Notes: generated by a model not told the origin, from the letters alone. DNA of 64,000 nt from Desulfurivibrio sp. (GCA_047921155.1 JBLRWU010000001.1:5362-69361), one strand, 5' to 3'; shown: positions 36,721 through 41,421, counted from the stretch's first letter. Made by a program: numbers and translations.

Positions 36721-37725
36721 TTATACCTCGCCTCCCATCAGCAGATAGCGCAGGTAATGGAAGGAAGAGAAAAGGGTGAAGAGCAGCAGCAGGATCAACG
36801 AAGCGGCCAGAGCCCGGCGCTGAAAGGCGGCCACCGGAGCGGCCAAACCGGGAAGGGAACGAAAAATCCCGGCCAGTGGTCCGCTCAGGCCGTAGAAGGC
36901 GGCCGGCAGCAGAGTCCCGTAAATGGCGAAACCGATATAGGCGTACTCGGGTTTAAGGATGCAGAAAGGGCAGTTATGGAAAGGCATGGCGTAAATATAG
37001 GAGGAGATCGCCACGGTTATCGCCAACAGGGCCAGGGGGAGAAAGAGCAGCCAATATGTGGCAAAAGCACCGTACAACCAGGGCCCGGGCCAACGCCAGA
37101 GAACAGCGCCCGTGAGCAGCAGGGCGGCGATCCCGCCGTAGAACGGTGGCAGAATTTGCCCGCCGGCCAACTCGGCCCAGAGCTGGGAGCCGCCGGAGCC
37201 GGGGCTGAAAACCACGGCGCAGCAGGAGGTGATAATGTCGGGTTCGATCTTGAGCAGGTAGAGGCTCTGGAGGGTGATATCCGCCGCCAGCCAGGGGAGC
37301 AGCGCCAGCAGATACCAGCACTTGTGCCGCACCAGAGGGTAGTGTTCGGAACTGATATCGAGCCGGTGAATCACCAGCCAGAAGCCGTAGAAAAAGACCC
37401 CGACCAGCTTGACCGTGAGGGCCGGCAGGCCGAAATCGTTGACCAACAGGGTGCCGGTGGCGCACATCGCCCCGGTGATCACCTCGGCGAAATTGTCGGC
37501 GGCCAGCACCAGCAGCACCAGGCTGAGGATCTGCAGGGCCAGGGCGTAAGTCACCAAAGTGGAAGAGAGCCAGATTTCGCTCTCCAGGCTGATCTGGCGG
37601 CTGTCGTCGCTGGCCGGATTCCAGAAGCGGATCACCCGCAGGGCGCTCCGGGCCGCCACCGCCAGCAGGAAAACCACCAGCAGACTGCTTAGAACCAGCG
37701 CCAGACTCCAACTGTTCAGCAGCAT
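36721..37725 (-). CDS. Uncharacterised polytopic membrane protein with Cys/His motifs
   Basis: About 8 hydrophobic segments; GAMCATG, TSCC and PFHNCPFC motifs; overlaps the upstream ATPase gene. Confidence 0.8.
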   Translation of the reverse strand: MLLNSWSLALVLSSLLVVFLLAVAARSALRVIRFWNPASDDSRQISLESEIWLSSTLVTYALALQILSLVLLVLAADNFAEVITGAMCATGTLLVNDFGLPALTVKLVGVFFYGFWLVIHRLDISSEHYPLVRHKCWYLLALLPWLAADITLQSLYLLKIEPDIITSCCAVVFSPGSGGSQLWAELAGGQILPPFYGGIAALLLTGAVLWRWPGPWLYGAFATYWLLFLPLALLAITVAISSYIYAMPFHNCPFCILKPEYAYIGFAIYGTLLPAAFYGLSGPLAGIFRSLPGLAAPVAAFQRRALAASLILLLLFTLFSSFHYLRYLLMGGEV

Positions 37726-38393
37726 CGCACCCGTCCGTCAGTCACCTCCACCACCCGGTCGATGGCTTGATCCTCAACCACCAGCGGGTCGTGGGAAGTG
37801 ATGATGATGGTTTTGCCCTCGGCTTTCAACCCGGCCATGATTCCCATAAACTCGTGGCTGAGTTTGGTGTCGAGATGGGCGGTGGGTTCGTCGGCCAGAA
37901 TAATCGGCTGATTGTTGATCAGGGCCCGGGCAATGGCCACCCTTTGCAACTCGCCGCCGGAGATCTGGCCGGCCGGGAAGTTCTCCCGGTGGGCGATTCC
38001 CAGTCGCTTAAGCAGAACCCGGGCCCGTTGCCGCTGCTCAGCGGGCGACACCCCCAGGGGCAACAGCGGCAGGGTGATATTTTCCCGCACGCTTAAGGCC
38101 GGCAGCAGATTGAAACGTTGAAAGATAAAACCGATGGTTTGGCGCCGATGGATGGTGAGAAAACGGTCGGGCAAGCGGGCCAGTTGCTTGCCGGCGATGG
38201 CCGCCCGACCGCTGGTGGGAGCCATCACGCAACCGATAATGGCCAGCAGGGTACTCTTGCCCGAACCGCTGGGCCCCTTGAGGCAAACCACCTCTCCGGC
38301 GGCCACCTGGAGATCGACCCCGGCCAGAGCCCGGACCTGATTGGCCCGGCCCCGGTTATAGATCTTTTCCACCTTTTCCAGTTCAATCAGCAT
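37716..38393 (-). CDS. ABC ATP-binding protein (LolD/MacB type)
   Basis: GPSGSGKST, IGFIFQRFNL, SGGELQRVAIARAL, ADEPTAHLD. Confidence 0.92.
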   Translation of the reverse strand: MLIELEKVEKIYNRGRANQVRALAGVDLQVAAGEVVCLKGPSGSGKSTLLAIIGCVMAPTSGRAAIAGKQLARLPDRFLTIHRRQTIGFIFQRFNLLPALSVRENITLPLLPLGVSPAEQRQRARVLLKRLGIAHRENFPAGQISGGELQRVAIARALINNQPIILADEPTAHLDTKLSHEFMGIMAGLKAEGKTIIITSHDPLVVEDQAIDRVVEVTDGRVRCC

Positions 38394-38398
38394 ATTGG

Positions 38399-39598
38399 CT
38401 ATCCGTTAAGGGCATCTTCGGCCGGCACCGAGGCGCTGCGCCAGGTGGGAATCACGGTGGCAGCCAGATAGGGCGGCACGGTCAGGGCAAAGAGCAGCAG
38501 CAGATCCTGCAGTACGATTTTGGGGGCCAGGGCAAAGGCGGGATAGATCGCCGACCAGCCCACCAGCACCGGCCGAAAGAGGGCGGCATCGAAATAGAGG
38601 ACATGGACCCAGGCCAGGGACAGCCCCAGCAGGAAAGCGCCCCCGGCCACCACCAAAGCCTCCTGGCCCCGCATGATCAGCAGATCCGGGGTCTCCCAGC
38701 CGACAATCTTGAGTACCGCCACCTCCCGGCGCTCCTCCGGTGATAAGCCGGAGGCCTTATCCCAGGCCAGGATGGCAAAGGCGGCCAGGGCGGCCAGCAG
38801 GCAAACGGCGGCCATGCCGCTGCGCCAACCGAAAACCGCCTGGTAGGTGCGGGAGATCTGTTCCCGGGTCAGTACCCGGGTATCGGGCAACACCTCGGCA
38901 ATCCGTCGGGCCAGATTATCGACTTCGGCCGGATTGTGGACATAGACGCACAGGTCGGTGACCAGTCCCGCAGGAATCTGGAATAGATCGCGGGCCTGGG
39001 CCAGCTCGACGGCGATCAGATCGGCGGTGAGCAGGTCGGTTTCGCCCTTGAAGATTCCCGAGACGGTAAAGCTTTTCAGGGTAAGGTCGGGCCGGAAGAG
39101 GGAGAAAAACCCGCCGGGGGCCAGATCGAGGGATGAGGCGATCAAACCGCCGACGGCGGCCGGGGCCGGCCCGTCGGCTCCGGCCGCCGGAAACTCCCCC
39201 GTCGCCAGGGTCTGACCCAGGTGTTGGCCCAGGGGCATCCGGCCGGGGTCGACGCCGATCACCGTGAAATTGGCCAGCCGCACCTCATCGAAATAGTAAC
39301 CCCAGATCCGGGGCACCACCTGCCTGATCCCGAAAAAACCGCGCAACTGTTCCTGGTAGGCCAGGGGAATTGATTCCTGGCGGCCGGCGCTCATCTTCTG
39401 GATCACGATATCGGGGGTGGGGGCCAGAATCGCCCCGGCCCTCTCGGTGAGGGCGTTGGTCACCAGATGAAAGGAGGCCAGCAGAAAGATCACCCCGGTG
39501 AAAATCAGCAGCACCCCGAGATTTTTCCAGCGCCGCCGCCACAACGAGGAGAGGGCGAAGTCCAGCAGGTTGAGTTGTTTGGCCAAAGCCCCTTCCAT
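38399..39598 (-). CDS. FtsX/MacB/LolE-type ABC permease
   Basis: One N-terminal TM, a large periplasmic loop, ERREVAVLKIVGW, three C-terminal TMs. Confidence 0.88.
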   Translation of the reverse strand: MEGALAKQLNLLDFALSSLWRRRWKNLGVLLIFTGVIFLLASFHLVTNALTERAGAILAPTPDIVIQKMSAGRQESIPLAYQEQLRGFFGIRQVVPRIWGYYFDEVRLANFTVIGVDPGRMPLGQHLGQTLATGEFPAAGADGPAPAAVGGLIASSLDLAPGGFFSLFRPDLTLKSFTVSGIFKGETDLLTADLIAVELAQARDLFQIPAGLVTDLCVYVHNPAEVDNLARRIAEVLPDTRVLTREQISRTYQAVFGWRSGMAAVCLLAALAAFAILAWDKASGLSPEERREVAVLKIVGWETPDLLIMRGQEALVVAGGAFLLGLSLAWVHVLYFDAALFRPVLVGWSAIYPAFALAPKIVLQDLLLLFALTVPPYLAATVIPTWRSASVPAEDALNG

Positions 39599-39600
39599 GG

Positions 39601-39966
39601 CTACCCCTCCGTCGCCGGCCGCCGCCGGTGAAGCGCTCCCGTGGGCTGGGGCTCCCGCAACAGCGGCGGCGGAGCCCAGAAGGAGCCGGTGGGAAAATGC
39701 TCGATGGCGCCGGGATGGCTCATAAACGGGGTCAGGGGATCACTGACCGCCGGATGCCTGGTGTAGCGAGCCTCGGTGGCCACCACCAGATCGGTCAGAC
39801 CCAGACCGGAAACCGCAATATGGAGGAGGGGCAACGCCGCCTGCTGCCGGGCCCGCAACTCCCGGCCATGGACCAGGATCATGGCGTTAAGGGCGATAAA
39901 GAGCAACAGTAATCCCAAGGCCAACGTGGAGGGACGCATCTGCGAGATCCTGCCTGGCCCGGTCAA
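39601..39966 (-). CDS. Small membrane-anchored hypothetical protein
   Basis: N-terminal hydrophobic helix, then GLTDL...TEARYTRHP...HPGAIEHFPTGS; coupled to both neighbours. Confidence 0.7.
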   Translation of the reverse strand: MTGPGRISQMRPSTLALGLLLLFIALNAMILVHGRELRARQQAALPLLHIAVSGLGLTDLVVATEARYTRHPAVSDPLTPFMSHPGAIEHFPTGSFWAPPPLLREPQPTGALHRRRPATEG

Positions 39967-40481
39967 TGACCACGCCCCATGGTATGGCCACCCCGCATCT
40001 CCTGCACCAGCTCGGGGGTGATCTCCTCGAAACGCAAAATCTCCCGGCCCTGATGATCCCGGGAAAAGGTCTGCGCCTTCTCCTCGGAGTCAAGCGGGAT
40101 AAACTCGTGCCCCATGGGACCGTGGATCCCGCTGCCGACCACATAATAGGCGCTCCGGCCGTCGATCCACTGCAGGGTGTAGTAGTCCTTGGCCCAGATC
40201 GCCGTCACCTCCACCCCTTTGCCAGCTCCGAAACTTTCGGGGTTGAAATGGTAGGCCAGCAGATCCTTCATCCCGTCGAAAAACTGCACCTTGCCGGTGG
40301 CCAGGTGCAGTTGGGTAATCCAGTGGGGGTAGCGGGCCACGAACATCCCGCAGACCGGGCACTTCTCCCGGACTCCCACCTGCTCCACCGGGGGTGGCGT
40401 CTTGGAGCCCGCGGCGCCGAACGCCGGCAACCAAAGTGACAGGATCAGAGCCCAAAACAGAACCTTCAGCGCACCCTTCAT
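39963..40481 (-). CDS. NosL-family periplasmic metal-binding protein
   Basis: Signal peptide, CPVCGM, FFDGMKDL, DYYTLQWID, GPMGHEFIP, FSRDHQG; His/Met C-terminal tail. Confidence 0.88.
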   Translation of the reverse strand: MKGALKVLFWALILSLWLPAFGAAGSKTPPPVEQVGVREKCPVCGMFVARYPHWITQLHLATGKVQFFDGMKDLLAYHFNPESFGAGKGVEVTAIWAKDYYTLQWIDGRSAYYVVGSGIHGPMGHEFIPLDSEEKAQTFSRDHQGREILRFEEITPELVQEMRGGHTMGRGH

Positions 40482-41020
40482 TGCAAATACCCTCCGATCA
40501 ATCTTTGCAACTCCTCCTCCCCCACCCCGCCCAGCACTGCGGCGGTCAGCCGGTGTTGCGGATCAATAAAAACCGCCATGGGGTCGAGTTTGACCCGGTA
40601 CTGTTCGGCGATCCGGCCGCCATGGTCGATAATCACCGGAAATTCGATCTCCAGTTCCGCAATAAAACGTTGAACCAGCTCCTGGTTCTCATTGCGGCTG
40701 ATGTAGATGATCTGCAGGCCCTGCTCCTGATACTGGCGAAAATAGCGGTTGAAAACCGGAGTATCGGCCCGGCAGTACTTGCAGTCCACCGACCAGAAAC
40801 GCAAAACCACCGGCTGGCCGTCGTAATCGGAGAGATTGAAACGGTTGCCGTACTGGTCAACCGCGGCGAAATCGGGGGCCTGATCGCCCAACTGCAACTG
40901 CCTTTGTTCTCCACAGGCGGCGAGCAACAGCAGCAACAACAGCACCGTGGCCCAGGATAATCCCCGAACGCCCGGCATTACCGTCCGCCCCTGCGGGCGC
41001 CAACTTCTCATTACCACCAT
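40478..41020 (-). CDS. TlpA/ResA-like thiol-disulfide oxidoreductase lipoprotein
   Basis: LAAC lipobox, APDF, FWSVDCKYC (CxxC), cis-Pro-like LDPM. Start is uncertain (41020, 41011 or 40978). Confidence 0.85.
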   Translation of the reverse strand: MVVMRSWRPQGRTVMPGVRGLSWATVLLLLLLLAACGEQRQLQLGDQAPDFAAVDQYGNRFNLSDYDGQPVVLRFWSVDCKYCRADTPVFNRYFRQYQEQGLQIIYISRNENQELVQRFIAELEIEFPVIIDHGGRIAEQYRVKLDPMAVFIDPQHRLTAAVLGGVGEEELQRLIGGYLQ

Positions 41021-41156: not shown

Positions 41157-41291
41157 TCATTGAGAGCTGGCAAGCAGGCTGCCGATGGTTTTCCGCAGCT
41201 CCTCCAGTTCCAGGGGCTTACACAGAACCGCGTGGGCGCCGGAATGTTCCAGCACCTCCTCCATCCGCGGCCGATCGATGGCGGTGATGGG
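41157..41291 (-). pseudogene. C-terminal fragment of a response-regulator receiver domain
   Basis: Hand translation PITAIDRPRMEEVLEHSGAHAVLCKPLELEELRKTIGSLLASSQ* matches the receiver beta4-alpha4-beta5(KP)-alpha5 pattern. There is no N-terminal half. Confidence 0.6.
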
Positions 41292-41298
41292 GACAAAC

Positions 41299-41333
41299 AA
41301 AAAGAGGGATTAAGAGCAGGCTCTTAATCCCTC
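41299..41333 (-). terminator. Intrinsic terminator after tRNA-Glu
   Basis: 13-bp stem GAGGGATTAAGAG / CTCTTAATCCCTC followed by a T run on the minus strand. Confidence 0.85.
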
Positions 41334-41345
41334 ATATCTGTTTTT

Positions 41346-41421
41346 TGGTGACCCCTACGGGACTCGAACCCGTGTTACCGGCGTGAGAGGCCAGCGTCCT
41401 AGACCGCTAGACGAAGGGGCC
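41346..41421 (-). tRNA. tRNA-Glu (anticodon CTC)
   Basis: GGCCCCT acceptor stem, CT-CTC-AC anticodon loop, GGTTCGAGTCC T arm, encoded CCA; 76 nt. Confidence 0.96.

Follow-up and report, generated by a model that had tools for sequence, protein, structure and literature searches.

A six-gene NosL cassette with a type VII ABC transporter in Desulfurivibrio, a candidate copper relay independent of N2O reductase

Copper routes to extracytoplasmic enzymes are, to our knowledge, known for few cases, namely Sco/PCuAC for oxidases and NosDFY-NosL for nitrous oxide (N2O) reductase. A locus in Desulfurivibrio sp. raises the question what a NosL protein does when it is encoded with an ATP-binding cassette (ABC) transporter of a different class and away from N2O reductase. 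The locus lies on the minus strand at 36721-41020 of a stretch of 64,000 nucleotides (GCA_047921155.1 JBLRWU010000001.1:5362-69361, hereafter the window) and consists of six co-directional genes that overlap or abut, referred to here as g1 to g6. We propose, with a probability of about 0.55, that these genes form one operon encoding an ATP-driven, thiol-dependent Cu(I) relay which serves periplasmic clients at the periplasmic face of the inner membrane, independently of N2O reductase. No published description of the cassette was found in full-text literature searches, whose coverage leaves most subscription journals outside, and proteins named "NosL family" appeared in the literature searched in proteome tables only (PMC6242987, PMC11349517).

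Open reading frames (ORFs) were read from the window. All six are on the minus strand. The first gene, g1 (40478-41020), encodes a TlpA/ResA-like thioredoxin-fold lipoprotein of 181 amino acids, with an alternative ATG start at 40978. It is followed by g2 (39963-40481), encoding a secreted NosL of 172 amino acids without a lipobox, and by g3 (39601-39939), encoding a small single-pass membrane protein of 112 amino acids from its ATG or 121 amino acids from an alternative TTG start at 39966. The next two genes encode a type VII ABC permease of 399 amino acids (g4, 38399-39598) and an ABC ATPase of 225 amino acids (g5, 37716-38393), and the last one an 8-helix membrane protein of 334 amino acids from an undescribed family (g6, 36721-37725). 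The g1/g2 junction is an overlap of 4 nucleotides, as is the g2/g3 junction if the TTG start is used (a gap of 23 nucleotides with the ATG start); g3 and g4 are separated by 2 nucleotides, g4 and g5 by 5 nucleotides, and g5 and g6 overlap by 10 nucleotides. A sequence-only reading of the window had described six overlapping or nearly abutting genes on one strand with these identities, and all elements of that description proved correct according to ORFs, Pfam and NCBIfam matches, and motifs.

The gene arrangement is not due to chance, as the order recurs in Desulfobulbales and in other phyla. The order NosL-g3-g4-g5-g6 is fixed in 20 Desulfobulbales loci, and in 15 of these 20 the thioredoxin gene g1 precedes NosL, with 37-77% identity. 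To find loci outside the order, species-level genomes were scanned with a DNA pattern made from the g6 motif GAMCAxG and its fixed 83-residue spacing to a CC pair. At least 120 loci were found with this pattern, and the 120 listed all carry a true g6 and span about ten phyla. Titles of the first 80 listed loci include Campylobacterota, Nitrospirota, "delta proteobacteria" of several orders, Myxococcota, Alpha-, Beta- and Gammaproteobacteria, Acidobacteriota, Verrucomicrobiota, Marinimicrobia, Bacteroidota and Bacillota, a taxon list which reflects the genomes that the pattern scan met first. Neighbours were counted per gene among the matches listed, using only loci with enough visible flank. 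The g4-g5-g6 core order is found in about 90% of the 120 loci listed. The ATPase gene adjoins g6 in 95 of 102 loci, the permease gene is present in 71 of 79 loci (and in four more by tblastn), and g3 is present directly upstream of the permease gene in 53 of 68. NosL was seen on the upstream side in 30 of 53 loci and on the downstream side in 20 of 62. A TlpA-like gene occurs in 24/120 loci and a CcdA/DsbD_2 gene in 15/120. From these counts, g3-g4-g5-g6 is the constant core, to which NosL and the reducing branch are often added. The sequence-only reading had staked itself on the genes occurring together elsewhere, which they do, widely and in a fixed order. Its view of a system built around NosL is corrected: NosL is present and has the Cu(I) ligands, but the constant core is g3-g4-g5-g6 and NosL is absent from some loci.

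Some Desulfobulbales (loci L047, L049 and L050; genomes G032, G038 and others) contain a paralogous g3-g4-g5-g6 set without NosL or TlpA, whose g6 is 31-38% identical. The neighbours of this paralogous set in L050 include a sigma-54 response regulator and a PAS/GAF histidine kinase, and five cassette loci in other phyla likewise have sigma-54 activators next to them. Loci with g6 only (Bacteroidota, Polyangiales) have housekeeping neighbours.

The g2 protein matches the Pfam NosL family (PF05573) with 109.6 bits against a cut-off of 24 (E-value 1.9e-31), and contains the motifs CPVCGM and GPMGH and a His/Met tail (GGHTMGRGH). It aligns with the Shewanella and Pseudomonas NosL structures 7og7 and 7osf (E-value about 4e-11). 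Mutagenesis of NosL from Shewanella denitrificans (SdNosL) identified C62, M64 and M145 as the residues carrying Cu(I) (PMC8457098). In the alignment these correspond to C44, M46 and M123 of g2, located within CPVCGM and GPMG, and the Cu(I)-ligand motifs were found in 24-28 of 33 cassette NosLs. The source genome (G000) encodes a second NosL-domain protein on contig 160 (L002:564-1457), a contig of 2 kb, with a twin-arginine signal and a CPYCGM motif, which is followed by a DUF7826 protein (1464-1979). In four Campylobacterota loci (L054, L086, L065, L099), two NosL domains are fused in a cassette NosL of about 360 amino acids, and the place of g3 is taken by a small, divergent protein of about 100 amino acids.

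Known copper enzymes were searched for as possible clients. The source assembly is a Desulfurivibrio genome bin of 1.94 Mb in 173 contigs, 80% complete. The absence of nosZ and nosD that the sequence-only reading had noted for the window extends to this whole assembly, in which no match to TIGR04246, PF18764 or TIGR04247 was found; PF12679 is too general to serve as a marker for nosY. None of 41 relatives contains nosZ or nosD over cut-off, whereas g6 is present in 32 of the 41. The search for nosZ works, as 12 of 50 cassette genomes of other phyla matched at 480-940 bits. With nosZ absent from the 41 relatives and present in 12/50 genomes elsewhere, the cassette does not strictly track nosZ and stands alone, as had been expected from the window, and nosZ is ruled out as the client of the cassette by its distribution. 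A haem-copper oxidase is present in 7 of 8 Desulfurivibrio genomes including the source genome, and is a second possible client in this genus, next to the one discussed below. As a general client it is ruled out, with COX1 in 13/41 relatives against g6 in 32/41. No multicopper oxidase was found in the source genome.

Type VII ABC systems form a class which does mechanical work in the periplasm or the outer leaflet and does not transport solutes across the membrane. The permease g4 matches MacB_PCD in Pfam just above the cut-off (27.1 bits against 27), and FtsX below it (16.7 against 25.5). An AlphaFold model from a 45-sequence alignment (predicted local distance difference test, pLDDT, 90.7) shows an FtsX-type four-helix membrane domain with a large MacB/LolC-like periplasmic domain between helices 1 and 2. 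In Foldseek searches this model matched LolE (E-value 3.5e-16), MacB (3.2e-15) and HrtB (3e-11), and also LolC, Spr0694-0695, YbbP and BceB (down to 1e-7). Because of the matches to LolE, LolC, MacB, HrtB, YbbP and BceB, g4 is assigned to the type VII ABC permeases, which bears out the earlier description as MacB/LolE-type. As the cassette contains a single permease gene, g4 would be a homodimer. The ATPase g5 matches ABC_tran (E-value 1.3e-32) and its catalytic motifs read as intact in the sequence: Walker A, Q-loop, signature, Walker B-Glu and H-loop (GPSGSGKST, SGGE, ILADEPT, SHD). In NCBIfam it scores best against MacB, FtsE and LolD, in each case below the equivalog cut-off. The cassette therefore shares the g4 fold and a MacB/LolD-like ATPase with LolCDE, MacAB-TolC, HrtBA, FtsEX, BceAB and YbbAP, but it scores far below the equivalog cut-offs of these systems (for the Lol system, lolCE 40.8 bits against 362 and LolD 183 against 308) and has no MacA, TolC, LolA or EnvC-like partner. 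No gene for a membrane-fusion partner (MacA) is present in the operon, and none recurs among the 120 loci listed. The constant partners of the cassette are instead g3 and the Cys-rich g6, often with NosL.

Neither of these constant partners matches a Pfam or NCBIfam family, for g6 even at an E-value of 10. The g3 protein has one N-terminal helix and a conserved periplasmic motif, LGLTDLxLxTEARYTRHPSxAD..FQDHPxxxEHFPSGS, with three His. The g6 protein contains the motifs GAMCATG, TSCC and FHNCPFC. Its family consists of 821 clusters at 50% identity in a large protein library, in which all members with a source name are labelled "hypothetical", and the closest homologues are from Desulfurivibrio. 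A comparison of 60 diverse homologues shows C88 and C252 to be invariant and C168-C169 and H250 nearly so; position 255 is occupied by Cys in 70% and by Asp in 27%. The AlphaFold model of g6 (pLDDT 94.3) consists of eight helices arranged as two four-helix bundles, and the three loops with the conserved Cys and His residues are predicted to be periplasmic by the positive-inside rule. A Foldseek search of the PDB with this model gave no match at an E-value of 0.001 or better, a wide VIA-align fold search gave generic 4-helix bundles only (Z 13 or less), and matches in the ESM Atlas were limited to unnamed clusters from Nitrospirota and Thermodesulfobacteriota. Compared with CcdA/DsbD, DsbB, VKOR, CopD and MerT, g6 has no sequence match in Pfam or NCBIfam and no informative fold match. 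It does not simply replace DsbD_2, because g6 and DsbD_2 genes occur in the same loci. MerT/MerP and CopC/CopD provide an analogy only, in that a thiophilic metal passes from a periplasmic binder to a membrane protein containing a vicinal Cys pair. No sequence or fold relation of g6 to MerT, MerC or CopD was detected; the analogy serves as a lead and does not classify g6. In several Desulfurivibrio species (G004, G005, G001), g6 homologues are 360-400 amino acids long and match in two or three pieces, which suggests insertions in the loop after the CC motif.

The g1 protein matches AhpC-TSA (E-value 6.5e-26), Redoxin (7e-17) and also Thioredoxin_8 in Pfam. With its lipobox (LLAAC) and CxxC active site (CKYC), it is an exported, anchored protein of the thioredoxin fold. 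Its best NCBIfam row is ResA (105.7 bits against a cut-off of 170), while TlpA scores 28.9 against 230, both below equivalog level. The thiol-reducing branch proposed from the window is borne out by the recurrence of TlpA-like proteins and, in other phyla, of CcdA/DsbD_2, with loci in which TlpA and then CcdA directly follow g6. An anchored periplasmic CxxC thioredoxin encoded beside a copper chaperone is reminiscent of TlpA/ScoI/PCuAC in CuA assembly and of ResA/CcdA, and the CcdA/DsbD_2 electron conduit in the same cluster in other phyla is a further likeness to the ResA/CcdA pathway. The cassette differs from these pathways in that Sco and PCuAC genes are missing from the operon, g1 stays under the cut-offs for TlpA and ResA, and the cassette occurs in genomes without a haem-copper oxidase.

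One of the known systems closest to such a set of proteins is NosDFY-NosL (Pseudomonas stutzeri structures 7osf-7osj and 7znq; SdNosL 7og7). The cassette shares with it a NosL chaperone with the same Cu(I) ligands, which is encoded beside an ABC ATPase and a permease thought to act mechanically in the periplasm and not as a pump, and in Arcobacteraceae it adjoins nosY/nosL-type genes. In contrast to NosDFY-NosL, the cassette has no NosD, NosZ or ABC-2-type NosY; its permease is of the FtsX/MacB class, g3 and g6 from unnamed families and a thioredoxin are added, and the g2 NosL is not a lipoprotein. We class the cassette as a chaperone plus ABC metal-delivery machine, built on a different ABC class and two unnamed protein families. 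If this is true, it would represent a third, widely distributed copper route, and if the ABC pair moves a metal ion mechanically, the known scope of type VII ABC systems would be wider.

In the mechanism that we propose by analogy with NosDFY-NosL, an ATP-driven conformational cycle in the periplasm would load or unload the chaperone. Cu(I), possibly released beforehand by a P1B ATPase, would be held at the membrane surface by the Cys/His site of g6. The type VII ABC pair would act on g6, assisted by g3 as an adaptor, and ATP would push copper between g6 and NosL. The TlpA-like lipoprotein would keep the cysteines of NosL and g6 reduced. NosL would take the metal and carry the copper to a periplasmic client.

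The best candidate for this client in the Desulfobulbales lineage is a secreted, His-rich beta-propeller protein with one haem. In most Desulfobulbales families, an FtsX permease gene and the propeller gene are located on one strand, and ATPase-TlpA-NosL-g3-g4-g5-g6 on the other. In the propeller P0299 (382 amino acids; L036:1587-2735), a signal peptide and a C-terminal CxxCH motif are accompanied by seven conserved His and by conserved Cys. It matched no Pfam or NCBIfam family, and its position near YncE-like seven-bladed propellers in the Atlas is a lead only. The earlier description of NosL as an orphan stands with respect to nosZ and nosD, but not with respect to this propeller, which co-occurs with its own ABC pair and is usually adjacent in Desulfobulbales, g6 and the propeller often being 5-6 kb apart. 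In Desulfurivibrio, a propeller-FtsX-ATPase operon is unlinked from the cassette; in the complete genome G004 the propeller operon is found at 0.51 Mb and the cassette at 1.11 Mb. The source assembly contains propeller-FtsX-ATPase at the start of contig 9 (G000 contig 9:1-2328; L181), and N-terminal pieces of the propeller at the ends of contig 38 (8-733; L179) and contig 171 (1069-1605; L180). That the propeller is the client in the source organism is a possibility that we rate somewhat below even. A more far-reaching version of the relay is that the cassette is a widespread ATP-powered copper insertase, in which a type VII ABC drives g6, itself a membrane acceptor or conduit for Cu(I) of a new class, and which builds a periplasmic copper/haem propeller enzyme in sulfur-cycling Desulfobulbales. 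We regard this version as doubtful; if it were true, N2O reductase would not be the only multi-copper propeller enzyme, and the second one would have an assembly line of its own. The cassette also points to an uncharacterised candidate client enzyme in relatives of cable bacteria which drive the sulfur cycle of sediments and alkaline lakes. Six of the loci (L036, L035, L038, L039, L042, L045) have two ATPase genes but one permease gene on the cassette strand; the second ATPase seems to belong to the divergent FtsX-propeller pair, which would be an unusual ABC system split across two strands.

Several observations weigh against the relay and its proposed client. About one third of the cassettes show no NosL within the DNA fetched. 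The signal peptide of g2 ends in LPAFGAAGS without a Cys, so it has no lipid anchor, and a lipobox is present in just 5 of 33 cassette NosLs. For the Zn(II) site of SdNosL, the ligand C59 corresponds to C41 of g2, but C88 and D92 align to D68 and D72, so that two Zn ligands read Asp/Asp; these two positions vary among NosL proteins (PMC8457098). The periplasmic domain of g4 has no conserved Cys, His or Met in the alignment. Most cassette-bearing Desulfobulbales have neither nosZ nor a haem-copper oxidase, and a role in supply therefore needs a client of unproven copper content. We also know of no type VII ABC system that handles metal ions. As to the propeller, its co-occurrence with g6 speaks for it: 121 Desulfobulbales genomes contain both g6 and propeller in 62 cases, g6 only in 16, propeller only in 4 and neither in 39. 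However, these genomes are related, so that the counts overstate independence and give no valid probability. The propeller is missing from 16 of the 78 g6-positive Desulfobulbales and was found in just 3 of 50 cassette genomes outside the order. The latter count suggests that the cassette is a general module whose clients differ between lineages.

Genes next to the cassette bear on the cargo. A Cu-translocating P1B ATPase (TIGR01511, 474-574 bits against a cut-off of 397) is encoded beside g6-TlpA in three loci (L094, L100, L056). A CusA/CzcA RND gene (TIGR00914, over 1060 bits, above cut-off) was found in both loci scored: in L110 it is located directly upstream of, and co-directional with, NosL-g3-g4-g5-g6, and in L089 it is nearby. 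ORFs of the same BLAST cluster occur in L080, L084, L090 and L057, and in three of those six loci the gene is upstream of the cassette on the same strand. In Arcobacteraceae the cassette is located beside a NosY-like permease gene and extra NosL genes. Each such neighbour type (P1B, CusA, CcdA, NosY-like) is found in a minority of loci. Taken with the NosL ligands, the neighbour genes indirectly favour Cu(I) over other cargos.

The P1B ATPase genes, which encode copper exporters, and the CusA/CzcA-family genes would also be expected if the cassette served Cu(I)/Ag(I) detoxification, in which thiophilic metal is stripped from the outer face of the inner membrane or the periplasm and passed via NosL to efflux, without maturation of any enzyme. 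The occurrence of the cassette in anaerobes without a recognised copper enzyme fits this explanation as well. However, efflux-type neighbours are found in <10% of loci, and neither a membrane-fusion nor an outer-membrane partner is part of the core. Supply is suggested by the nos genes next to the cassette in Arcobacteraceae and by the His-rich propeller that adjoins it in Desulfobulbales. Free copper is scarce in sulfidic habitats, which also counts against detoxification, and we consider this explanation unlikely.

Lower still is the probability that the cysteines of g6 and NosL relay another thiophilic cargo, such as Zn, Ni, Hg, or sulfane sulfur/polysulfide, with TlpA resolving the bound forms. 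A vicinal Cys pair and a CxxC suit persulfide or Hg/Zn chemistry as well as Cu, and the usual cargo of type VII ABCs is hydrophobic or membrane-bound (LolCDE, HrtBA, BceAB). The carriers among the matches listed are rich in sulfur-cycling taxa (Sulfurimonas, Sulfuricurvum, Thiodiazotropha, Sedimenticola, Chromatiaceae, Desulfobulbales, Desulfuromonadales, Thermodesulfovibrio), but this list consists of the genomes that the DNA pattern scan met first and does not constitute a test. Metal genes near the cassette are of the copper type, no sulfur-transferase genes recur beside it in the loci listed, and the ligand set of NosL, a Cys and two Met, is the set shown to bind and deliver Cu(I) (PMC8457098). 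A thiol-redox or haem system for periplasmic c-type cytochromes, with a ResA/CcdA-like branch, an HrtBA-like ABC acting on haem and an incidental NosL, is very improbable: ResA as the best NCBIfam row of g1, the CcdA/DsbD_2 genes, the haem exporter HrtB among the g4 fold matches and the CxxCH motif of the linked propeller agree with it, but g1 is far below the ResA cut-off, the g6 alignment has one conserved His and no WWD-type haem-handling motif, NosL is the commonest partner of the core, and the g4 fold matches LolC/E and MacB equally well as or better than HrtB.

Upstream of the cassette, the locus is bounded by a tRNA-Glu(CTC) gene (41346-41421, minus strand; ARAGORN) and its terminator hairpin with a 13-bp stem (41304-41333, minus strand; terminator scan). 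The tRNA-Glu gene and this strong terminator directly upstream set the six genes apart as a transcription unit of their own. Between the terminator and g1, no promoter resembling the sigma-70 type was found. The same interval contains a short ORF (window 41157-41264, minus strand), a very short piece without a Pfam match, which resembles the final 35 residues of the receiver domain of a response regulator (..AVLCKPLELEELRKTIGSLLASSQ) and may be a gene remnant.

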